This document shows positions 1 to 10,371 of a stretch of 10,371 nt of DNA, piece after piece. The translations under genes were made by a program, and so were the position numbers. The notes under the pieces are model-generated. The model did no database searches. It worked only from the letters and a program-made list of their open reading frames with translations, and was not told the DNA's origin. Within the stretch, counting starts at the first letter, position 1. The number at the start of each line of letters is the position of its first letter. The DNA is from a virus (lineage: Duplodnaviria > Heunggongvirae > Uroviricota > Caudoviricetes): the IMG/VR virus record IMGVR_UViG_2565956719_000006. One strand, 5' to 3'.

Positions 1-8
1 CCGGCAGA

Positions 9-103
9 AGCAGAAAAAGCTTATTATGCTTCCATCGGAAACGATGATCTGGCAGCCTGAGTTCACAGATAAAACACTCTCCAGGAAACCCGGGGCGGTT
101 CAC
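9..103. repeat. Left copy of a perfect inverted repeat of at least 95 bp (partner 10277..10371)
   Basis: Reverse complement of 10277..10371 is identical to 9..103, checked base by base. Identity breaks at 104 and 10276. The right copy runs to the window edge, so the true length is unknown. Confidence 0.9.
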
Positions 104-186
104 CTCACCGTCTGGTCGGTGTCCTGCTGAGACTTATAACTTCCTGTTTTTGTTGGTGTAGTCCTTACACCGTCCAATCATGATTG

Positions 187-211
187 GCTGGCGGGAGTTG
201 AACCCGAGTCC
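187..211 (-). other. tmRNA (ssrA) 3'-end-like fragment, possible att-core remnant
   Basis: Minus strand reads GGACTCGGGTTCAACTCCCGCCAGC. This matches, with one mismatch, the T-arm and acceptor segment of E. coli ssrA as I recall it (GGACGCGGGTTCAACTCCCGCCAGC-TCCACCA). The terminal TCCACCA is absent. Directly abutting is a perfect 14-bp palindrome CCAATCATGATTGG at 174..187. Confidence 0.3.
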
Positions 212-362
212 AAATATCACTAACTTGATGTAATTAATGATTTTTTCGACATTAACTATCTTGCGGATCTTACACGTATCTTTTACTGTTATATCCCAGT
301 CTTCATAACCAACTATGAATAGTAGATAATCTATAAATCCATCGTATAAGAATGACATCGCT

Positions 363-1274
363 ATGACCATACTGGTACCCCCAAGCAAATTTTGCATTTA
401 CTCAGATGATTCTAGGGCTGGGACATTGAACTTCATCAACTCGATTGAATCGATTGGAGTAAAAAATAAAGGTCGAGTTATAGTTGATTTGTCCAAGGTA
501 AAATTTGCCTCAGCTGCGGCATCGGTACTGTTCTTTGCCATAGTAAATAGAGCTCAATTTTTAACCCGGGACCCTAATTTTATACGTTTTAAATGGCCTA
601 AAAAGGATGATAACCCATCTGGGCATAGATGGATCGTTGGTACTGGACTTGCTCGTGCTTTGCTTGCTGGCACAGAAGAGAAACTGAATGCACTTACGAG
701 GGAGGAACGATACTTTCAGTCAGCTGTCGAACCTTACGAGCATATTGTTGAAACAGTACTCATGCTGCAGAAAAGTGCTCTGCTTAATAATGAACAGTTA
801 GGCTTACTGCTGACAGCGATTAGTGAAGCTTTGCTCAATGTTTCTCATCATGCGTATGAAGATGAGGGGTTCGAGTCAGATATTCAGCTTCTCAAAGGTA
901 AACGATGGTGGCAGTGCGCTTGGTTCAATCGTGATGAAAATAAAGTCGTTTTTATCGTTTGTGACCTTGGATTGGGGATTTATAGAAGTTTCGTGCCTAA
1001 TGGTGATGGTCATAGCATTCAAAACGAAGTATCTTCTGTGGAAAGAGCTATGTTAGTAGGGGAATCCCGCTTTGTTGGTTCCGGACGGGGAAATGGCTCT
1101 GAAGATATCAAGAGACCTATTGGGGCAGGTTGTGAGGATAATGAGACACTTCTGATACTAACAGGAAGGGCTCGTTATAGCTATAATTCTAATGACAGTA
1201 GTCCTCGATGTGAGAAGCTAGCTGAGTACATACCGGGTACTTTACTACAATGGTCGCTGGTTCCCAGGAGATGA
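363..1274 (+). CDS. GHKL-superfamily (Bergerat-fold, histidine-kinase-like) ATPase, anti-sigma/RsbW-like class; possible N-terminal STAS-like segment
   Basis: 303-aa ORF with N-box EALLNVSHHAY (aa 155-165), G1 box DLGLG (aa 201-205) and G2 box GSGRGNG (aa 239-245) in canonical order and spacing. N-terminal stretch VIVDLSKVKFASAAASVLF resembles a STAS core motif. Stop lies 4 bp before the next start. The SD is weak, so the start is uncertain. Confidence 0.75.
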   Translation: MTILVPPSKFCIYSDDSRAGTLNFINSIESIGVKNKGRVIVDLSKVKFASAAASVLFFAIVNRAQFLTRDPNFIRFKWPKKDDNPSGHRWIVGTGLARALLAGTEEKLNALTREERYFQSAVEPYEHIVETVLMLQKSALLNNEQLGLLLTAISEALLNVSHHAYEDEGFESDIQLLKGKRWWQCAWFNRDENKVVFIVCDLGLGIYRSFVPNGDGHSIQNEVSSVERAMLVGESRFVGSGRGNGSEDIKRPIGAGCEDNETLLILTGRARYSYNSNDSSPRCEKLAEYIPGTLLQWSLVPRR

Positions 1275-1278
1275 TTTT

Positions 1279-1605
1279 ATGAGAAATATCGTCATAGCGA
1301 AGGAGTTCTCCAGAACACCTTTCGGACGTTACACAACGGATAGCCCACACAGTGCGGAAAGATTTCGTAGAGAGTTTTTGGTGCCTGCGCTGAAGGGTAC
1401 TGAACAGGAGATTGTGGTTGATTTTCGCGGTATAGCACTGGGTGTTGGTTCCTCTTTCTTAGAAGAGGCGTTTGGAGGTCTCATCCGTAAGGAAGGGATA
1501 CCTAAAGCCAACGTTAAAGCACGTTTGATTATAAAAAGTGATGTTCCGTTCTACAAAGAACAGATTGATAAATTTATTGATTTAGCACAACCAGAAAGAG
1601 TATAA
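1279..1605 (+). CDS. Small STAS-like protein (DUF4325-like), candidate partner or substrate of the upstream GHKL ATPase
   Basis: 108-aa ORF with a good SD (AGGAGA) upstream of ATG 1279. Motif EIVVDFRGIALGVGSSFLEEAFGGL (aa 44-68) fits the STAS / DUF4325 pattern (beta-strand, then a Ser-Ser-Phe helix) as I recall the family. Tight spacing to both flanking genes. Confidence 0.7.
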   Translation: MRNIVIAKEFSRTPFGRYTTDSPHSAERFRREFLVPALKGTEQEIVVDFRGIALGVGSSFLEEAFGGLIRKEGIPKANVKARLIIKSDVPFYKEQIDKFIDLAQPERV

Positions 1606-1615
1606 GAGGCGATAG

Positions 1616-2233
1616 TTGATCAGTACGGAACCAATGTCATTAGTAGCACAAATAGGACAGTATTCGTGGTGTATCACAGTAGTTAGCGTCTGCTTAGTTT
1701 TCATTGGATGGCGAGTTGCGTACAATAATTCTGTAAAACTGGCGACACGTTCTGAATCGAAATCAATTATTGATGCTATTTCAAAGTTAGTTATTGAAAT
1801 TTCTGATATTTCTTCTAACTATTGGCTCAGTCAGACAACTCAACCTAAAATTAGAGCATCAAAGCATCGATTGTTAAGGTTGCAAAAGGATAGAACAAAG
1901 GCTTCTGTTTCATACTTGTTAACTATCTTGGCTAAAGCTCAACAAGTTTCCAAACTGATTTGCATTTTGGAAAGCAGAGGACTGTATATACCTGACGAGG
2001 TGTTCTCATCTGTACTAGAGAAAGCAACTCTGGATTGTGAGGTCGCTCACAAGCTTTCAGATGCCGATCGCCCGGTTAAAGCACAAGAAGTAATTGATGC
2101 TTGTATGGGAGTTATCGAAGCGTTACATACTTCTTTTCAAAGGTACCACCCTCCCAAAAAGGATCGTACCTTTATGCAAAGGTTAAAAATTTGGTTTCAA
2201 ACAGTAGACGATTGGCATAATGACTTAAAATAA
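1616..2233 (+). CDS. Membrane-anchored hypothetical protein (one N-terminal TM helix plus charged soluble domain), third gene of the operon
   Basis: 205-aa ORF starting at TTG 1616 with AAGAGG 6 nt upstream (alternative ATG at 1634 has no SD). Hydrophobic segment YSWCITVVSVCLVFIGW near the N-terminus. Starts 11 bp after the upstream stop. Its 3' end overlaps the integrase 3' end by 9 bp. Confidence 0.65.
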   Translation: MISTEPMSLVAQIGQYSWCITVVSVCLVFIGWRVAYNNSVKLATRSESKSIIDAISKLVIEISDISSNYWLSQTTQPKIRASKHRLLRLQKDRTKASVSYLLTILAKAQQVSKLICILESRGLYIPDEVFSSVLEKATLDCEVAHKLSDADRPVKAQEVIDACMGVIEALHTSFQRYHPPKKDRTFMQRLKIWFQTVDDWHNDLK

Positions 2234-3397
2234 AGCCTTTTTATCCTTGATACTTGCCCTCCCATCATACTCTTTCAAGTATTGTCCATAGTGCCTGAAT
2301 AACATTTCAGGCCCTTTATGGCCCATTTGAGCCGCAAGCCAAAACAGGTTTGCTCCCCGGCTGATATGGCTGGTGGCGAATGTATGCCTGGTTTGATATG
2401 GGTTTCTGTAACGAATACCTGCTTTTCGCAATGTTGGCACCCATGCTTTTTTCCTAATTGCATCAGCACTTGCCCAGGGTTTATTGGTCTTTGGATCTTC
2501 AAAGACAGTAGCATCCTTCATGAATGTAAATGGCTTCTGGTTTATCAACGCCAACATTGCTTCTTCAGTCAGTTCAACTTTACGGGTACCGGCTTTTGTC
2601 TTTGTTCCTTTGATAACTCCGACAACACTTGCGCTCTGAACATGGGCTGTTTTTCCAACAAAGTCGATATCATGCCATCGTAGGGCACATAATTCAGAAC
2701 TACGCAGGCCTGTATGTATGGCGAACCGGAACAGATTTTCCCATTGTTTGTTTCCGGCTGCTGCTAGTAATGCATCAACTTCTGCTGGTGATAGCGGATC
2801 AACCACATAGCTGCTTTCTGCTTCTGACTTATCACTTTGGTAGCGCGAAGCTGTTACTAACGATACGGGGTTAATTTGAAGTACCCCATCGGTCACGGCT
2901 TCATCAAGTGCTGACCGTAGGAAAGATAACTGGTTGCGAATGGTTTTTAAGGTTGTTTTCTGGCTTTGAATCCACGCTTTCAGGGTTGCTGGTGTTAATT
3001 CACTTGCAGGGCAAATGTGAAGTGAGGCTAACGCACTACGGCATTTTTTATAGCCACCAATCGTAGAGGGTGAAAGTTTTCTTGTTTCGCAGATTTCAAG
3101 ATATTCGTCCAGGTACATCTTTACCGTTTTGCTTGCAGCAGCATTACCAAAAATTTTCAAACGAGCAGAACGGGGAAAATATTCTGCATAAATGAATGTT
3201 CCCCTTTCGATCTTATTATGGATTTCGCCGAGTGTACGCTCGGCGTATTTAATGTTCTTTGGTGTTACTTCCAGATTGGAAAGCGGCTCACGACATCTAA
3301 CTCCTTTGTAGGTGAAAGTTATATTGATCGTTTCTCCCTGGTGGTGTTTCCTGATTGTTACGCCGCGCGGTAGTTTGAGCAGTTTTGTCTGGCCCAT
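2225..3397 (-). CDS. int: Tyrosine-type site-specific integrase with N-terminal arm-binding (DUF3596-like) domain
   Basis: 390-aa ORF with GAGG SD. N-terminus LPRGVTIRK...ITFTYKGVRCRE is arm-domain-like. Catalytic box residues are present (TGLRSSEL; HxxR in YQTRHTFATS; LAAQMGHKGPEMLFRHYGQY with the terminal Tyr). Confidence 0.95.
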   Translation of the reverse strand: MGQTKLLKLPRGVTIRKHHQGETINITFTYKGVRCREPLSNLEVTPKNIKYAERTLGEIHNKIERGTFIYAEYFPRSARLKIFGNAAASKTVKMYLDEYLEICETRKLSPSTIGGYKKCRSALASLHICPASELTPATLKAWIQSQKTTLKTIRNQLSFLRSALDEAVTDGVLQINPVSLVTASRYQSDKSEAESSYVVDPLSPAEVDALLAAAGNKQWENLFRFAIHTGLRSSELCALRWHDIDFVGKTAHVQSASVVGVIKGTKTKAGTRKVELTEEAMLALINQKPFTFMKDATVFEDPKTNKPWASADAIRKKAWVPTLRKAGIRYRNPYQTRHTFATSHISRGANLFWLAAQMGHKGPEMLFRHYGQYLKEYDGRASIKDKKALF

Positions 3398-3576
3398 TTT
3401 GCAACCTCACTAAGATCAATCCACCTCTCCTTAACGCCTTCAACCTTTAAAACCTGAACACCTTCACGCCAAACACCGCGCTGTACACGTTTGTTTATTG
3501 CTTCAGGAGTTTCGCCAGTTTCTTTGCAATAAGTTGAGATAGGAACACAATCGAGGTTCAGCATACGTTTCTCCAT
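3358..3576 (-). CDS. xis: Excisionase-like small DNA-binding protein (DUF1233/Xis-like)
   Basis: 72 aa from ATG 3576 (MEKRMLNLDCVPISTYCKETGETPEAINKRVQRGVWREGV...). Overlaps the integrase start by 40 bp, the usual xis-int arrangement. An upstream ATG at 3603 would give 81 aa. Confidence 0.7.
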   Translation of the reverse strand: MEKRMLNLDCVPISTYCKETGETPEAINKRVQRGVWREGVQVLKVEGVKERWIDLSEVAKWARQNCSNYRAA

Positions 3577-3605
3577 TATCCCGTCTGCACACGGGAGCAA
3601 CATTA

Positions 3606-4472
3606 TTAACGAATAGTGTCGTTACTTTGAAGTACAGCAAATGCCATTAATACTTCTAAAGTATATCTTCTATAAAATTTAACAAAACCAACATAGAAAA
3701 CATAGACGAAGAAAAAGCTAAGCATTATTGAAAGTAAACTATAAAGATAATCACTATGAGTACATAATCGATAAATAAAGGTTGGAACTGATACCCAAAA
3801 TGAAATTATAAAGATTAAACATATGTTTCTGCAAAAACCATATAATGCAACATAGTTTTGAATTTTTGTTTGATGTTGTTTTGAAAACTCATAAACATAA
3901 TGATATGCCAATCTGAAGAGATCATCATCAAGTCCGTTTTTATCTTGTAATAATTGGCGATTTGTTATGAACTTTTTCTCATAACCTTCTTTGATCATTA
4001 ACCATGTTGTATTAGCTAAATGAAATGGTAGAGATTGAGAATAACATAGTTTTTGTGTTATAAAATCCCATAGTATTATTGGACATAATACGCATTTGAT
4101 TATGCGATTCTTTATTTTTGTTTTTTTATCAGCGCTTCTCTCATCGCATGATGGGCTACAAATGCTTTCTGAGGTATCTATCAATTTTTTAAATAGATAT
4201 TTGGAAGGATATCCTAATTCTTTATTCATGTATTTTTCGATAAAAAATGCTGACGTGATAGAAATAAAATGTCCAGCTATATAAGATATAATAACTATTG
4301 AAGCGTAGTTCAAAATGCCAAAGATTTGACTTTGACCTCTGAGCAATTCACTTAAGTCAATAACAATATCTAGATCGAATGTCAAACCACAGAAATACAT
4401 TAATAGGATAAAAAAACCACCTGGTATTAAATATCCAAGAAAGTCATAGAATGAGAATGGATTTTGATTCAT
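3606..4472 (-). CDS. Polytopic inner-membrane protein of unknown function (AT-rich moron)
   Basis: 288 aa from ATG 4472, preceded by GGAGAG SD (the ORF-track start at 4496 is 8 codons upstream). About 5-6 hydrophobic helices (e.g. FLGYLIPGGFFILLMYFCGLTF, ICLIFIISFWVSVPTFIY, LYSLLSIMLSFFFVYVFYVGFV). Visibly AT-rich compared with neighbours, with an AT-rich 108-bp upstream spacer. Confidence 0.7.
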   Translation of the reverse strand: MNQNPFSFYDFLGYLIPGGFFILLMYFCGLTFDLDIVIDLSELLRGQSQIFGILNYASIVIISYIAGHFISITSAFFIEKYMNKELGYPSKYLFKKLIDTSESICSPSCDERSADKKTKIKNRIIKCVLCPIILWDFITQKLCYSQSLPFHLANTTWLMIKEGYEKKFITNRQLLQDKNGLDDDLFRLAYHYVYEFSKQHQTKIQNYVALYGFCRNICLIFIISFWVSVPTFIYRLCTHSDYLYSLLSIMLSFFFVYVFYVGFVKFYRRYTLEVLMAFAVLQSNDTIR

Positions 4473-4580
4473 TGTTGCTCTCCAATAATTTTTCAATTTG
4501 TAATATAACCTATATCTATATGTTAATAAATTACTTATATGTTCTTTTATGGCAGAGTTTGAATTCGTACGTGCTGATTT

Positions 4581-5105
4581 TTACGACTCAGTTAACTCTT
4601 TAAAGCGTTCCATAAACATCCCATAGGTATGGCCTGGCGACAGTGGAATAACTTTGAACATCTCTGTTGCCGGGATACCTTCCAGTACGGGCCAGAAAGA
4701 GCCATCATCAAGCCCGAGATCGCGGCGTTCGGTTGCCAGCATGATGAGATCGGCATATTTCACGGGCGTACTCATAACCGGGGGTAACCCGTATTTCTCA
4801 CGGATTACGGCGTCTATTTTTTCTTCCATCCGTTTATAGTCAGGAAGAAGGCGTTTCAGTGGCGCCGGGATGTCCTGGCAATACGCTTCTGTTGCATCAT
4901 GCATTAACGCTTCAAAAGCAAATTCCTGCGGTACCAGTTGGCTGCAAAGCACCGCATGTTGGGCGACGCTGTAGAAATGTGAAAGATGTCCTGCAAAGCG
5001 ACAGATATTTGAAAGAGAAACCGCGATATCGTTAATAACGATGTCGTCTTTATTTATCCTGTCATAATAAAAATGCTTCCCGGAAAAAGTTTTAATAAAT
5101 GACAT
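4581..5105 (-). CDS. yfdR: HD-domain phosphohydrolase (YfdR-like, 5'-deoxynucleotidase family)
   Basis: HD motif context HLSHF...ALMHDATEAY. ATG 5105 has a GGAG SD; in-frame GTG starts at 5117 and 5132 are alternatives. Symbol is from my recollection of the E. coli K-12 CPS-53 yfdP-yfdQ-yfdR cluster (120/274/178 aa), which matches the sizes and order here. Confidence 0.8.
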   Translation of the reverse strand: MSFIKTFSGKHFYYDRINKDDIVINDIAVSLSNICRFAGHLSHFYSVAQHAVLCSQLVPQEFAFEALMHDATEAYCQDIPAPLKRLLPDYKRMEEKIDAVIREKYGLPPVMSTPVKYADLIMLATERRDLGLDDGSFWPVLEGIPATEMFKVIPLSPGHTYGMFMERFKELTES

Positions 5106-5199
5106 TTTGTTCTCCACGTATATGCGCTGCACCGCGCTGAATTCTGGTAAAAGAAAGCCCTCACCATCCGGCGATTATTGAGTCAATTACGTTTCCATA

Positions 5200-5221
5200 A
5201 ATGCCCCCGCAGGGGCATTTG
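5200..5221. other. Intercistronic GC-rich hairpin (9-bp perfect stem, 4-nt loop) between the yfdQ-like and yfdR-like genes
   Basis: AAATGCCCC-CGCA-GGGGCATTT. No U-tract on either strand, so it is not a canonical intrinsic terminator. Confidence 0.5.
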
Positions 5222-5232
5222 CAGTAATGAAA

Positions 5233-6057
5233 TCAGGCGGTAAAAGTACCAATAAAGGTTTCTACTTTGCTGTCCTTGAATTTCTCAACAAGCAGATCAC
5301 GAAATTCGTTAGCCATTTCTTCCTGCACTGCTTCCAGCTGAATAATGCGCAGAACCAGTACAGGACGATCGCCAGTGATAATGCTGAGGCGTAATTTAAA
5401 CGGACGTTCTTTCAGGCCTTCAAACGGAACGCATTTAAATTCAAATGCCACTGGCATAATATCTTTGGTCTTCGCTTCGACAGACTCCATCAGGGAGCGT
5501 TTGCCGCTGAAGTCATTGTCTTCAAAATCAGCGGTCTGGTTTGCTTCAATCGTGATTTTACGGACTGCCGCAGCCGCTTTTGTTGCCTGAATAGCATCAC
5601 CATTAGCATCAAAGCCCACAAGGTAGTCGGCCCAGTCTTCAATCCATTCTGCCAGTGACTTCTGGGAGTTACGCTCGCCGTTAACAGACAACAGGGCAGA
5701 GAACGGTGCTGTCTTTTTCAGTTTGAGAGTGGCGGTGTTATCTGCGTGACCAGGCTCATCAATAGTACCCAGGTTAAGCACACTGACGGCACGCATATTA
5801 TCGGCATCGATAAAGCAGCGGGTGCCTTCATCCGCAAGATCTTTAGAATAACGGGTAAAGTCATCGATGCTGGCAGTGGAAAGCGCACCACGGAAACGGA
5901 AGCGATTTAAATTAAATTTTTCCAGATCATGAATGCGGAAATTCTCAGGCAATACCACAGCATCGGCACCAATCTTACTGATAATTTCATTAACACCCTG
6001 AGCAGAAATAAGGGCATGGATTTGATTAATTGCGGTTGCGTCTAAGTTCTGAGACAT
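5233..6057 (-). CDS. yfdQ: YfdQ-like prophage protein (DUF2303 family)
   Basis: 274-aa ORF with GAGGA SD 7 nt upstream of ATG 6057. Length and neighbourhood match my recollection of K-12 YfdQ. Confidence 0.8.
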
Positions 6058-6122
6058 AATAAGTCCTCACTATATAAAGATATTCAGTGATGAGATAAAT
6101 AATCAGTTAATTAAGAACGATA

Positions 6123-6485
6123 TTAATGACCTGCTGCGCGGAGTTTTCCGTCAGGTTCACCGGCAAGAGTCAGTAATTGTCCCTGGTCTTCCTGCAGAAT
6201 AGTCAGGCGACCACCGCGATTGACATACATCGGCGTTTCGGTGGTGTCTTCTTCGGAAATTTTCCCGCGGTTAGTCGGACGAACATATGAGAGTTTGTGT
6301 TTTATTTTCACACGGTTCTCATCAAACGGTTCGATTTCCAGGTTGAGCGAGACCTTACCTTTGGTTTTCGTGTTCATCACACCGGAAGCGACTTCACTGA
6401 GAACTGCGCCGATTTTGGTTTCAAATACGCCGCCGTCCAGCTCCCCGATAAATTCCTGCACGTTGGTACTGCGTTCGCTAGCCAT
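6123..6485 (-). CDS. yfdP: YfdP-like small prophage protein
   Basis: 120 aa from ATG 6485 with a strong GAGGAG SD. The ORF-track 226-aa form adds an Arg/Cys-rich, non-protein-like extension running into GC-rich non-coding DNA. Confidence 0.7.
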   Translation of the reverse strand: MASERSTNVQEFIGELDGGVFETKIGAVLSEVASGVMNTKTKGKVSLNLEIEPFDENRVKIKHKLSYVRPTNRGKISEEDTTETPMYVNRGGRLTILQEDQGQLLTLAGEPDGKLRAAGH

Positions 6486-6533
6486 TTTGCTGCTCCTCAT
6501 CATATCGACCCTGCAAGGTCGGTTGGTTTCTCC

Positions 6534-6622
6534 ACAAAACAGAGAAGAACACCTGCGGTGGCAGCCGCCCGGGTGGATTGGGTTATGAGCCCGTCGTCCG
6601 GTGATGCTCTTCTCTGTTTTGT
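6534..6622 (-). promoter_or_regulatory. Candidate structured leader RNA element: 15-bp perfect inverted repeat closing a 59-nt GC-rich loop, with boxA-like motif at its edge
   Basis: 6534..6548 (ACAAAACAGAGAAGA) is the exact reverse complement of 6608..6622. The enclosed segment contains two further short hairpins (GCGGTGGCAGCCGC; CGGGT...GCCCG). Minus strand at 6621..6633 reads CCGCTCTTTTTAC. It lies about 50 nt upstream of the yfdP-like SD. Confidence 0.3.
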
Positions 6623-6953
6623 AAAAAGAGCGGTACCAGCCGGAAGCAAGGGTACAAGCTGGTACCGCCAGGACTACACACAGCATAAAGTTGTGGTGCC
6701 GGGTGCCTCCCGGTGCCTGGCGAAGGTTGCACACCAGGCGGGTGGGTATCCACAGAAGGTCGACTGTCAGCCTCAACCTTAACCCGCGTGCGCTGAGCCG
6801 CATTCACCACAACGCTAAGGATTCTCTCTGGTTGAAAATACTTAGCTGTTATGTGCCTGCTTTTAGCCACATCAGGCGAGGTGGGCCTGGTTATTCCCCA
6901 ACAACAAGGATTCGGCTAATCTGGATGACTCTGTTCTTAGAGGGGATAATTAA

Positions 6954-7466
6954 ATGGGAGCGATTTATGTTAAACGTTTGATTCTGTCGGTAGCACTGAT
7001 AATACCGATAGCATCCAATGCTTCTGATGCTTTGAACCAGCCGAGCAGTAGTCTAAATGATGGTGTTGAGACTTTTTTTATTTCCTGCTTTGATATGCCT
7101 CAGGAAACAACTACTGATATGGACGCTTGTCAGAGAGTTCAGTTAGCTCAGGTTAGTTGGGTTAAGAATAAGTATTCGGTGGCCGCCCTGAATCGTTTGA
7201 AACAAGACAACAAGGATGATCCACAGCGTCTGCAGGAATTAACTGCTTCTTTTAACGCGGAAAGTGAAGCTTGGACAGAATTAATTGAGAAAGCGTCAAA
7301 GTCCGTCCAGGTTGATTATGCAGGAGGAACTATAGCTGGCACTGCAGTTGCATCACGTCAAATTGGTCTTCTGGAATTACAATCCCACGATATCTGGGAG
7401 CACTGGCTACGATTCGAGGACTCAACTCCTCCTCTTTTGCCAGAACCAAAGTTCAAATCTGAGTAA
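6954..7466 (+). CDS. Secreted/periplasmic protein with Sec signal peptide (possibly DUF1311/LprI-like), moron
   Basis: 170-aa ORF with SD GAGGGG. N-terminus KRLILSVALIIPIASNA|SDA is a typical signal peptide. Two Cys in the mature N-terminal part. Own intrinsic terminator downstream. Confidence 0.75.
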   Translation: MGAIYVKRLILSVALIIPIASNASDALNQPSSSLNDGVETFFISCFDMPQETTTDMDACQRVQLAQVSWVKNKYSVAALNRLKQDNKDDPQRLQELTASFNAESEAWTELIEKASKSVQVDYAGGTIAGTAVASRQIGLLELQSHDIWEHWLRFEDSTPPLLPEPKFKSE

Positions 7467-7493
7467 TAAGTCATCCAGATTGTTAAAGAGCGA

Positions 7494-7517
7494 AGCGTCC
7501 TATAGGGCGCTTTTTTG
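7494..7517 (+). terminator. Rho-independent terminator of the secreted-protein gene
   Basis: AGCGTCC-TATA-GGGCGCT stem (7 bp, one G-U) followed by TTTTTT, about 28 nt after the stop. Confidence 0.6.
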
Positions 7518-7594
7518 TTGCTAACGAATCATCCTGGACTTCATATGCCCCAGGCGGCTACTTCGTGGGCGTCCTGCCTGTTTGTTGTTTCTCT

Positions 7595-7630
7595 TGGGTA
7601 CATTATGTGTCTCAAAGGTACATTGTCAAG
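7595..7630 (-). promoter_or_regulatory. Putative leftward (PL-like) promoter with GTAC-core operator-like repeats
   Basis: Minus strand has TTGACA, an 18-nt spacer and TAATGT. Two direct GGTACATT repeats (7597..7604, 7617..7624) share the GTAC core of the OR palindromes. Confidence 0.3.
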
Positions 7631-7656
7631 TATAAAAAAACCTGCCGAAGCAGGTT
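7631..7656 (-). terminator. Rho-independent terminator downstream of cI
   Basis: On the minus strand, a CCTGC-TTCG-GCAGG hairpin (extendable by two A-U pairs) is followed by a U-run, 13 nt after the cI stop. Confidence 0.6.
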
Positions 7657-7668
7657 CATAAACATTGA

Positions 7669-8343
7669 TTAGGCTTTGATTTTGTATCTTCTTGGTTTTC
7701 CTGAGAAAATCACAGTACCAATTATAGAGCAATTACCGTTGATCTTAATGTAAGGCTCAGGCCAGTTTGGGTTTAACGCTTTGAGATAACGCTGTGTCCC
7801 ATCTTCTATCAACCTTTTGAAGGTGGTTTCACCTGTATCGTGCATCAATGCAATAACGTCGTCACCGTGGCAGGCAGGTACTTCAGGATCGACAAAAATC
7901 ATGTCTCCCGGGCGGTACTCATCAATCATTGAATCACCTATCACCCGCAAGATATAAGTCATTTCCCCACAGGGTACAGGGCAGGGATACGTTTCTGCTG
8001 TGCTCAAATCAACCTCAGAATATCCAACTTCTTTCCATGCTCCGGCCTGTACCCATGATATGACAGGGACTAATGTGATTTGTTTATTAGTGATTGAAAC
8101 ATCAGGTTTTTTTGTGATGTTCGTTGTCTGGTGTTCTTGATCGAGCCATCCGACAGGCAGGTCGAAACATTTTTCGATGTGTCGTGCCATGCTGTCACCG
8201 ATATTTTTAGTAGCACCATCTCCCATAAACCTGCTGGTCTGGGTTGGCTCGCGATCAATCATAGTGGCAAAGGAAGAATTCCCGCCAACACCATCTCTCA
8301 GTTTTCTGGCGTTAGACCGCCGGATGTCATGGATTGTTTTCAT
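7669..8343 (-). CDS. CI-like phage repressor (N-terminal HTH, C-terminal S24 LexA-like autopeptidase)
   Basis: 224 aa. C-terminal domain has catalytic Ser in VIGDSM and Lys in TFKRL, the LexA/CI S24 signature. Divergent from the cro-like gene. Confidence 0.9.
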   Translation of the reverse strand: MKTIHDIRRSNARKLRDGVGGNSSFATMIDREPTQTSRFMGDGATKNIGDSMARHIEKCFDLPVGWLDQEHQTTNITKKPDVSITNKQITLVPVISWVQAGAWKEVGYSEVDLSTAETYPCPVPCGEMTYILRVIGDSMIDEYRPGDMIFVDPEVPACHGDDVIALMHDTGETTFKRLIEDGTQRYLKALNPNWPEPYIKINGNCSIIGTVIFSGKPRRYKIKA

Positions 8344-8434
8344 AACGAAATTAAAACCCTTGTACCGTTAAGGTACAAGTATCTTGAAGGTTCATTTCAA
8401 TCATGTAATATGTACACCGTAGGTACACATTGTA
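8344..8434. promoter_or_regulatory. Immunity switch: OR-like operators with divergent PR and PRM promoters
   Basis: Palindrome CTTGTACC-GTTAA-GGTACAAG at 8359..8379 and imperfect TGTACACCGTAGGTACACA at 8411..8429. PR candidate is TTGAAG (8384..8389), 16 nt, TAATAT (8406..8411). PRM candidate on minus is TTGTAC, 17 nt, TTTAAT, ending 6 nt before the cI ATG, which implies a leaderless cI mRNA as in lambda. Confidence 0.6.
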
Positions 8435-8634
8435 TGAAAGCGTATTGGGACTCTTTAACCAAAGAACAGCAGGGCGAGTTGGCCGGAAAAGTTGGCTCAA
8501 CACCTGGCTACTTACGGCTGGTTTTCAATGGCTATAAAAAAGCCAGTTTTGTGCTGGCTAAAAAACTTGAGCAATGCACGTCAGGTGCAATTACGAAATC
8601 TGACTTAAGACCGGATATCTATCCGAAAGATTAG
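8435..8634 (+). CDS. Cro/YdaS-like small HTH regulator
   Basis: 66 aa from ATG 8435 (MKAYWDSLTKEQQGELAGKVGSTPGYLRLVFNGYKK...ITKSDLRPDIYPKD), position and pattern of a YdaS/Cro-family protein. The longer ORF-track form (8131..8634) would overlap cI and the operators. Confidence 0.75.
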
Positions 8635-8665
8635 CAGAACACTTTCAATTTTTAACCACAGAACG

Positions 8666-9229
8666 ATGAGGCTAACCGTGGGTAAGTATCACTGGAAAAT
8701 AGAAAAACAGCCTGAGTGGTACGTGAAAGCTGTCAGAAAAACGATCGCGGCGTTGCCGGGTGGTTACGCTGAAGCGGCTGACTGGCTCGATGTAACAGAA
8801 AACGCTTTATTCAACCGCCTTCGTGCAGATGGCGATCAGATTTTCCCGCTGGGATGGGCAATGGTTTTACAGCGTGCTGGTGGCACTCACTTCATTGCTG
8901 ATGCTGTGGCGCAGTCTGCAAATGGCGTCTTTGTGTCTCTTCCTGACGTCGAGGATGTGGACAACGCCGATATCAACCAACGCCTGCTGGAGGTCATTGA
9001 ACAGATCGGCAGTTATTCAAAACAGATTCGTTCAGCAATTGAAGACGGTGTAGTGGAACCGCATGAGAAGACAGCAATTAACGATGAGCTGTACCTCTCA
9101 ATTTCGAAGCTGCAGGAGCATGCAGCACTGGTCTACAAAATCTTTTGCGTTTCAGAAAGTAGTGACGCCCGCGAGTGTGCAGCTCCGGGCGCCGTGGCGT
9201 GTCGTGACTGTGGAGAAACTAACGCATGA
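8666..9229 (+). CDS. CII/YdaT-like phage regulatory protein (putative)
   Basis: 187-aa ORF immediately downstream of the cro-like gene. Alternative GTG start at 8678 has a better SD (GAGG). Family assignment is by position and general resemblance only. Confidence 0.6.
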
Positions 9230-9564
9230 ACAGTTTAACAACACACTACCGTCGCTCGCAACTGATTGCGCTTCCTGTACCGGGTGGAAAAGCGAAGGTG
9301 GAGTATTGCTATGCAGTAAATGTACCAGGTGACAGGGAAATTGTAACCCACAGCTTTGCTGAGTGGGCTGTGGGTGATTTCAACCGGCAGAAGGAGACAG
9401 TCCTTTGCGACAAGTTAACCGCTGGTTCAAAGATCACTACGGAGTGCCCGTCAGAGTCATTCGTTGGGAACCGGAAACACAACGGGTTATCTACCTCCGC
9501 GAAGGCTATGAGCATGAATGCTTCAGTCCGCTCGAACAGTTTCGTCGTAAATTCAGGGAAATAG
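9226..9564 (+). CDS. Hypothetical protein, translationally coupled (ATGA overlap) to the CII/YdaT-like gene
   Basis: 112-aa ORF whose ATG overlaps the upstream TGA (ATGA). Its stop is 9 nt before the O-like gene start. No recognisable motif. Confidence 0.5.
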
Positions 9565-9573
9565 AGGTCGGTC

Positions 9574-10317
9574 ATGAGCACTAAATTAACCGGCTATGTA
9601 TGGGATGGTTGCGCTGCGTCAGGCATGAAGTTATCCAGCGTGGCAATTATGGCCCGCCTGGCTGATTTCAGTAATGACGAAGGTGTGTGCTGGCCATCAA
9701 TTGAAACCATTGCCCGCCAGATTGGCGCGGGGATGAGTACCGTCAGAACGGCTATCGCACGGCTGGAAGCAGAAGGCTGGTTAACGCGTAAGGCGCGTCG
9801 CCAGGGTAACCGCAATGCGTCGAATGTTTATCAGCTTAACGTTGCGAAGCTTCAGGCAGCGGCATTTTCTCAACTGTCAGATTCTGACCCGTCAAAATCT
9901 GACGCATCAAAATCTGCCCCGTCAAAATTTGATGCGTCGAAATCTGGCAAAAAAGCGGGTTTTCACCCGTCAGAATCTGGCGGGGATCCGTCAGTAAAAT
10001 CAAAACATGATCCGTCAGATAAAAAAACTTCTCGTCCGGACGCTTCGCAACCGGACACGCAGACGGCTGAACAGGAGTTTTTAACTCGCCATCCTGATGC
10101 TGTTGTATTCAGCCCTAAAAAGCGCCAGTGGGGAACGCAGGATGATTTGACCTGCGCACAGTGGCTCTGGAAAAAAATCATCGCCCTGTACGAGCAGGCT
10201 GCCGAATGTGACGGCGAGGTGGTTCGTCCCAAAGAACCGAACTGGACAGCCTGGGCAAACGAAATTCGCCTGATGTGTGAACCGCCCCGGGTTTCCTGGA
10301 GAGTGTTTTATCTGTGA
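9574..10317 (+). CDS. Lambda O-like replication initiator (N-terminal HTH domain, low-complexity linker); C-terminus possibly truncated or chimeric
   Basis: 247 aa with SD AGAGG. The Ser/Asp/Lys/Pro-rich linker coincides with the iteron array. The last 13 codons and the stop lie inside the terminal inverted repeat, which begins at 10277. Confidence 0.8.
   Translation: MSTKLTGYVWDGCAASGMKLSSVAIMARLADFSNDEGVCWPSIETIARQIGAGMSTVRTAIARLEAEGWLTRKARRQGNRNASNVYQLNVAKLQAAAFSQLSDSDPSKSDASKSAPSKFDASKSGKKAGFHPSESGGDPSVKSKHDPSDKKTSRPDASQPDTQTAEQEFLTRHPDAVVFSPKKRQWGTQDDLTCAQWLWKKIIALYEQAAECDGEVVRPKEPNWTAWANEIRLMCEPPRVSWRVFYL
9875..10030. repeat. Origin-of-replication-like iteron array with adjacent A-rich tract inside the O-like gene
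   Basis: At least five tandem ~15-bp imperfect palindromic units (CTGTCAGATTCTGAC, CGTCAAAATCTGACG, CATCAAAATCTGCCC, CGTCAAAATTTGATG, CGTCGAAATCTGGC, CGTCAGAATCTGGCG), then CCGTCAG repeats and AAAAAAA at 10021..10027. This mirrors ori-lambda organisation. Confidence 0.7.
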
Positions 10318-10371
10318 ACTCAGGCTGCCAGATCATCGTTTCCGATGGAAGCATAATAAGCTTTTTCTGCT
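10277..10371. repeat. Right copy of the perfect inverted repeat of at least 95 bp (partner 9..103)
   Basis: Exact reverse complement of 9..103. Runs to the window edge. Confidence 0.9.

Follow-up and report, generated by a model that had tools for sequence, protein, structure and literature searches.

The 10,371-nucleotide stretch analysed here (the window) corresponds to one contig of E. coli HVH 148 (4-3192490) (GCA_000495015.1, scaffold KI538723.1, 1.71 Mb), and the perfect inverted repeat that bounds it is very probably explained by two copies of an IS629/IS1203 insertion sequence that bracket a 10.2-kb prophage remnant in opposite orientation, with contig breaks inside the IS setting the length of the repeat. 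The element is 1310 bp long and belongs to the IS629/IS1203 group of the IS3 family, and each arm of the repeat is the IRR-proximal end of one copy.

A repeat search of the window recovered the inverted pair 9-103/10277-10371 over 95 nt with 100% complementarity, so the perfect repeat of at least 95 bp reported in the preliminary description is real. The second-longest inverted pair in the window was 30 nt long with 73% complementarity, and by our own arithmetic the chance expectation for a perfect 95-mer in 10 kb is about 1e-50. The terminal 25-mer of the arms, TGAACCGCCCCGGGTTTCCTGGAGA, occurs twice in the window (78-102, minus strand; 10278-10302, plus strand) and was found in none of 200 shuffles. 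When the window ends were read against full IS copies, the true homologous unit proved to be 94 nt (9-102 and 10278-10371), the 95th pair (103/10277) being a flanking base that matches by chance. The boundaries of the IS are marked by ...GGTTCA up to position 102 and by TGAACC... from position 10278, and window positions 1-8 are IS sequence too. The suggestion that the edge of the window limits the match was also borne out, as runs of N lie directly beyond both ends of the window in the deposited scaffold and the 95-nt limit is therefore an assembly break. The apparent repeat length of about 95 bp is a property of the assembler and not of the biology.

Window positions 1-103 matched 24,821 places in 4,074 of the 5,426 complete E. 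coli genomes searched, mostly with at least 99% identity, and the annotation of these places reads "IS3-like element IS1203 family transposase". By comparison with a full copy (L003; 1310 bp, beginning TGAACCGCCCCGG and finishing CCGGGGCGGTTCA), the arm consists of the last 60 nt of the transposase coding sequence (the 3' end of orfB) plus 42 nt up to the right end of the element. Accordingly, window positions 1-60 translate as PAEAEKAYYASIGNDDLAA followed by a stop, the last 19 codons of the transposase, and positions 10278-10371 match the final 94 nt of the reference IS without a difference. The 5'-TG/CA-3' ends and the terminal sequence TGAACCGCCCCGG... of IS3/IS629/IS1203 elements are present exactly at both sites of the 25-mer and recur in two full copies (L001 and L003), and the IRL ends are present beyond both gaps of the scaffold. 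Elements of the group are about 1.3 kb long, with orfA and orfB linked through a programmed -1 frameshift and a transposase of the DDE (rve) type. All sequenced parts of the two copies, that is 102 and 94 nt on the IRR sides and 219 and 342 nt on the IRL sides, the middles of both copies being N, are 100% identical to a 1310-bp copy in strain NCTC11151, which is annotated with a programmed frameshift and an AL1L pseudoknot. Nor do the visible parts of the right-hand IS speak for a hybrid of two subtypes, as recombination might have left, since this natural copy matches them all. The subtype is widespread (1,299 records with a match of at least 99% identity) and 49 of its 1310 positions (3.7%) differ in the O157 IS1203 copy used for comparison, a divergence inside the 4-5% spread among IS629/IS1203 subtypes (PMC3271280).

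The two copies stand in opposite orientation on either side of the block, with their IRR ends inward and their IRL ends outward. The gaps that flank the window measure 930 N within the IS on the O side and 1075 N within the IS on the accessory-gene side, and past each gap the IS sequence picks up again and reaches its proper IRL end (after 342 nt on the O side and 219 nt on the other). As 874 IS nucleotides are missing in the gap of 930 N and 989 in the gap of 1075 N, each gap fits one 1310-bp copy, and from these gap sizes, the middles being N, both copies were assumed to be full-length. The window, which occupies positions 428-10798 of its locus (L004, in KI538723.1), is a short-read contig that ended about 100 nt into each multicopy IS because the assembler could not cross the element. 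A second, independent assembly of this type (L008, GCA_000408305.1) has 94-nt contig stubs on both sides of a gap in the same IS type, and one of these stubs ends ...AAGCTTTTTCTGCT, as does the right end of the window. Nor are the arms the terminal inverted repeats of a linear phage or plasmid genome, since the window lies within a chromosomal scaffold of 1.71 Mb and has chromosomal genes to its left and right.

Between the arms lies a discrete block, as had been proposed, whose features are collected in Table 1. Over the 10,177 nt compared (window 103-10279), it is collinear with the genome of UTI89 and differs from it by 11 mismatches (99.9% identity). The UTI89-type prophage sits between glaH and ssrA, and the parent prophage region is present in more than 100 other genomes. 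UTI89-type genomes have no IS at either of the two sites, the left one being intergenic upstream of glaH and the right one lying within the O-like gene.

Table 1. Coordinates of the features in the 10,371-nucleotide window of E. coli HVH 148.
Feature	Position	Strand	Description
IS copy A, 3' end	1..102	+	Transposase end 1-60, right terminal inverted repeat 78-102; 100% match to annotated IS1203-family ends
CCT, one copy of 3-bp target-site duplication	103..105		IS insertion in the intergenic region upstream of glaH
Block	103..10277	+	10,175 bp; left arm of UTI89-type lambdoid prophage and adjacent island genes
Three accessory genes	363-2233		
Integrase	2225-3397	-	Tyrosine integrase with Arm-binding domain (Pfam)
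Excisionase-like gene, AT-rich membrane protein gene, yfdR-, yfdQ- and yfdP-like genes			After the integrase, in that order
LexA-type repressor	7669-8343	-	
cro-like and CII-like genes, then 5' part of O-like gene			Right end of the block
Truncated O-like replication initiator	9574..10317	+	Residues 1-235 native, 236-247 and stop from IS
IS copy B, 3' end, inverted relative to copy A	10278..10371	-	Terminal repeat 10278-10302; transposase stop and last codons 10320-10371

The accessory module encodes a 303-aa protein with a weak match to histidine-kinase-like ATPases (HATPase_c_2, below the cut-off), a 108-aa STAS-like DUF4325 protein and a 205-aa protein without a family, the first two of which resemble an anti-sigma kinase/anti-anti-sigma pair. 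The 303-aa protein is common (9,143 blocks), and none of the three genes gave a PADLOC match. As the module is also found without the prophage (L008) and beside other neighbours (L007, L010), it is probably island cargo and not part of the phage gene set.

Several other features of the block were recorded. The gene at 3606-4496 (minus strand), between the excisionase-like gene and yfdR, is AT-rich (27-30% GC). Its product, a 296-aa predicted membrane protein, belongs to no Pfam family and resembles Csx27 weakly in PADLOC (E 1.4e-5), and the gene has the look of a moron acquired not long ago. Positions 5944-5962, a stretch of 19 nt in the yfdQ-like gene (5233-6057, minus strand), contain five of the 11 mismatches with UTI89, and the resulting variant of YfdQ is common to prophages at other chromosomal sites (L015-L018, L023); this suggests that resident prophages exchanged a small patch of sequence by recombination. 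The stretch 6123-6803 is locally GC-rich (up to 57% GC), and here RefSeq relatives annotate a frameshifted hypothetical gene upstream of yfdP; within it, positions 6534-6558 and 6598-6622 form a 25-nt imperfect inverted repeat (84%). An Rfam search of the window gave no match, and a scan of positions 1-500 for promoters and terminators gave nothing above chance. Pfam detected no invertase or resolvase among the 10 block proteins scanned, the tyrosine integrase being the sole recombinase. An invertible segment of the Hin/Gin/Pin type does not fit either, as the arms are IS ends and the pin-like remnant of UTI89 lies in the part that is deleted here.

In the preliminary description, the right arm was taken to encode the natural C-terminus of an O-like replication protein and the left arm to be an inverted duplicate of that coding fragment, and both assignments have to be abandoned. 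In BLASTP comparisons, the O-like open reading frame is identical to the 313-aa protein of UTI89 in 235 of 235 residues and then diverges; its last 12 codons (EPPRVSWRVFYL) and its stop codon come from the IS, and the C-terminal 78 residues of the 313-aa protein are absent. Both arms are the 3' end of the IS transposase gene plus the terminal repeat. The suggested comparison with related prophages revealed the uninterrupted gene, which in UTI89 is intact, 313 aa long and without an IS. The product of the fusion between the truncated gene (O') and the IS (ESP27306.1) occurs on one contig only in the collection. A protein-database search with the missing 78-aa C-terminus of O, looking for an IS-O' fusion, returned only unrelated fragments, as is to be expected from the scaffold, where the 3' part of O does not adjoin the IS at all. 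On the other hand, positions 9862-9984 of the O-like gene hold six copies of a 15-nt periodic repeat of the TCAAAATCTGNCNCG type, translated PSKSDASKS..., which are presumably origin iterons kept in the remnant despite the truncated initiator.

The same comparison was made for the sequence to the right of the left arm. UTI89 is contiguous and without an IS at this point (...GTCTCCTCACCG...), where the window reads GGTTCA followed directly by CCTCACCG. The partner of the CCT triplet lies outside the window, beside the IRL of the O-side IS (L004 12072-12074, read as AGG); there, the outer flank on the glaH side matches UTI89 up to ...GTCTCCT, followed by one extra G and then by the IRL (TGAACC). 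The two CCT copies are the 3-bp target duplication of one original insertion, as is usual for IS629, which generates target duplications of 3-4 bp and has 62% of its copies in prophages (PMC3271280). The extra G (L004 12071) stands where UTI89 has a C, and the IS copies in NCTC11151, L008 and L003 are without an extra base; it could reflect a target duplication of 4 bp (CCTC) whose last base has mutated, imprecise cleavage at the end of an IS circle, or a base-call error.

Searches for the two inner junctions elsewhere were largely negative. For the left junction, no genome among the 5,426 complete E. coli genomes covered at least 80% of the query. The right junction gave two complete genomes with at least 80% coverage, both as two-piece matches spanning 332 and 435 bp against a query of 262 bp, which we take to mean that an IS lies close to this site but not at it. 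In collections that do not include the source genome, the exact left junction had no match among species-representative genomes and neither junction had one among viral contigs.

Beyond the O-truncating IS, the scaffold continues with the region upstream of glaH and then with glaH-lhgO-gabDTP. On the far side of the other IS, a DUF262/GmrSD gene (L019 17323-18330) is cut after nt 979, in codon 327 of 629, which leaves 326 complete codons; this flank is identical to UTI89 in 1500 of 1500 positions, and next to the gene are GIY-YIG and DpnII-like genes, towards ssrA in UTI89. In UTI89, 28,260 bp (coordinates 2904807-2933066) holding the rest of O, late regulators and the lysis, head and tail genes lie between the DUF262 cut and O codon 236, and all of this is absent at the HVH 148 locus. 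The triplets at the O-side and DUF262-side junctions are mismatched (CAC versus GTA), which points to a deletion or a recombinant IS and not to a simple insertion. The DUF262/GmrSD family is linked to the restriction of modified DNA and the gene has lost its C-terminal half, so a likely defence gene was inactivated by the IS events as well.

To account for this arrangement, we propose a series of IS-driven steps in the decay of the prophage. One IS would have inserted upstream of glaH by copy-out/paste-in, the mode of transposition of the IS3 family, creating the CCT duplication, and another copy would have inserted into the O-like gene at codon 235. Then, a deletion of 28.3 kb would have removed everything from O codon 236 to a point within DUF262/GmrSD, the late and structural genes included, either by recombination with a third IS copy in DUF262 or by an IS-promoted adjacent deletion. 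Finally, homologous (RecA-type) recombination between the inverted 1.3-kb copies would have flipped the block. Both the order of these events and the recombination mechanism are what we infer from the junctions. We found no single-event model that covers the four junctions together with the deletion and the inversion; intramolecular replicative transposition as in IS26 was rejected, since it leaves the junction triplets unexplained and is not known as a mode of movement in the IS3 family.

The deposited scaffold joins the O' end through one IS to the glaH flank and the accessory-gene end through the other IS to the DUF262 flank, so the block runs opposite to the backbone on both sides and the CCT copies are on different IS copies. 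This is the footprint expected from homologous recombination between inverted IS copies. With the 28-kb deletion adjacent, it agrees with one of the origins first offered for the repeat, namely that it marks the end points of an inversion or recombination event. Because the four junction sequences are the same with or without an inversion, only the orientation assigned by the scaffolder bears on this last step, and from this scaffolding we consider it probable that the deposited orientation reflects the real chromosome and that the inversion took place.

The same IS copies and the same 28-kb deletion would also be found if the block had never been inverted and the contig had been misoriented by the scaffolder, the true order being DUF262'-IS-O'...int...accessory genes-IS-glaH. 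All four junctions are compatible with this order, which leaves both CCT copies around a single IS, as in a simple insertion, and needs one rearrangement fewer; moreover, orientation errors classically arise with contigs that have identical inverted repeats at their two ends. However, the sized gaps of 930 and 1075 N each fit one IS, implying read-pair links that agree with the deposited orientation, and a flipped 10-kb contig would shift the few-kb links of a jumping library by several kb. We regard a misoriented contig as rather unlikely, and a real inversion remains the preferred reading.

Two further origins had been put forward for the repeat, a mobilised cassette with long terminal inverted repeats and a palindromic assembly artefact. 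The geometry of a composite transposon is certainly there, with inverted copies of one IS, their IRL ends outward and cargo between them, as in Tn10 and Tn5, the composite transposons whose inverted IS arms likewise flank a cargo segment. Unlike those elements, the unit described here has no common outer duplication (GTA against CCT(G)), its outer flanks being about 38 kb apart in the ancestral (UTI89) arrangement, and its cargo is still at the ancestral locus: the glaH-side outer flank was ancestrally contiguous with the block and shares the CCT triplet with it, so the block never left the locus. In addition, the inner junctions occur in none of the 5,426 complete genomes, the fusion protein is confined to its one contig, and the unit was seen at no other locus, so that arrival of the whole IS-block-IS unit by transposition is hardly credible. 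A fold-back artefact, or an inverted duplicate of an O-gene fragment, is less credible still. The position of the repeat exactly at both contig ends speaks in favour, but the arm is an IS end found about 24,800 times and not O sequence, and the intact O diverges exactly where the IS starts. Furthermore, the two arms are followed inwards by different sequences, each collinear with reference genomes, and the IS continues past both gaps to its proper ends. The sole artefact is thus the pair of contig breaks inside the IS.

We also considered whether the IS-bracketed 10-kb segment might be a recurrently flipping, RecA-driven switch or a nascent composite transposon, both of which we hold to be very improbable. 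As a switch, it would, in the deposited orientation, aim the early rightward operon (cro-cII-O') at glaH-lhgO-gabDTP and couple prophage derepression to host glutarate and GABA catabolism; against this stands a strong terminator-like hairpin, AGCCCGCTGATGCGGGCTTTTTT (L004 ~12123-12145), between the IS and glaH in that direction. As a nascent transposon, it could move the immunity region together with the HATPase/STAS accessory module, but no second copy of the IS-block-IS unit was found.

The features of the two copies agree with those of IS629/IS1203 elements in other lambdoid prophages of E. coli, namely a length of 1310 bp, with which the gap sizes agree, the ends TGAACC...GGTTCA, a 3-bp duplication, a preference for prophages, gene truncation and strain-specific sites; the difference is in the host, here the extraintestinal strain HVH 148 with a UTI89-type prophage and not O157. 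The same IS is found in the integrase gene of the same prophage in NCTC11151 (with a CAA duplication) and in CP101741, and APEC E12053 appears to carry one in its integrase gene as well, its position being taken from the hit table only. In L008 (12081-13563), an element of the same type joins the integrase gene, at the point equivalent to window position 2442, to the region upstream of DUF262, and this is an IS-bounded loss of the whole prophage and of DUF262. At the same locus of CP101741.1 (L021/L022; GCA_030625705.1, ~891-917 kb), the yfdP-yfdQ/repressor/cro region of this prophage type is present three times in tandem, which may be a real amplification or an assembly problem.

Prophage and IS repeats have been described at the ends of inversions in E. 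coli O157 on a scale of 1.15 Mb (PMC7430833). Likewise, inverted repeats lie here at both ends of the flipped segment, the target duplication is split between IS copies, and non-matching triplets mark the deletion; unlike the O157 case, the segment measures 10 kb and its inversion is read from the scaffolding alone. As for the gene content, the remnant resembles CPS-53/KpLE1, a cryptic prophage remnant of E. coli K-12 that carries yfdN, yfdP, yfdQ and yfdR. Both keep the integrase, regulatory and early genes along with homologous yfd genes, and both are without late genes; in HVH 148, unlike in K-12, the decay is recent, the IS-marked breakpoints are still visible and the intact parent is present in the more than 100 genomes mentioned above.

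Judged by its gene content, the remnant is a grounded cryptic prophage that keeps its integrase, repressor and iterons and is predicted to be unable to replicate, lyse or package. This is an ordinary case of an already known kind, the IS-mediated truncation, deletion and probable inversion of an E. coli prophage, and would not surprise a specialist. Perfect inverted or direct repeats of about 94-100 nt located exactly at the ends of a window should be read first as contig breaks in a multicopy IS, and an open reading frame that continues into one of these arms will usually be a truncated gene whose tail is encoded by the IS. The biological import of the finding is small, one more common IS turning an inducible phage into a grounded remnant, and its value lies in offering a clean, fully explained case together with a caution on repeats at contig ends.
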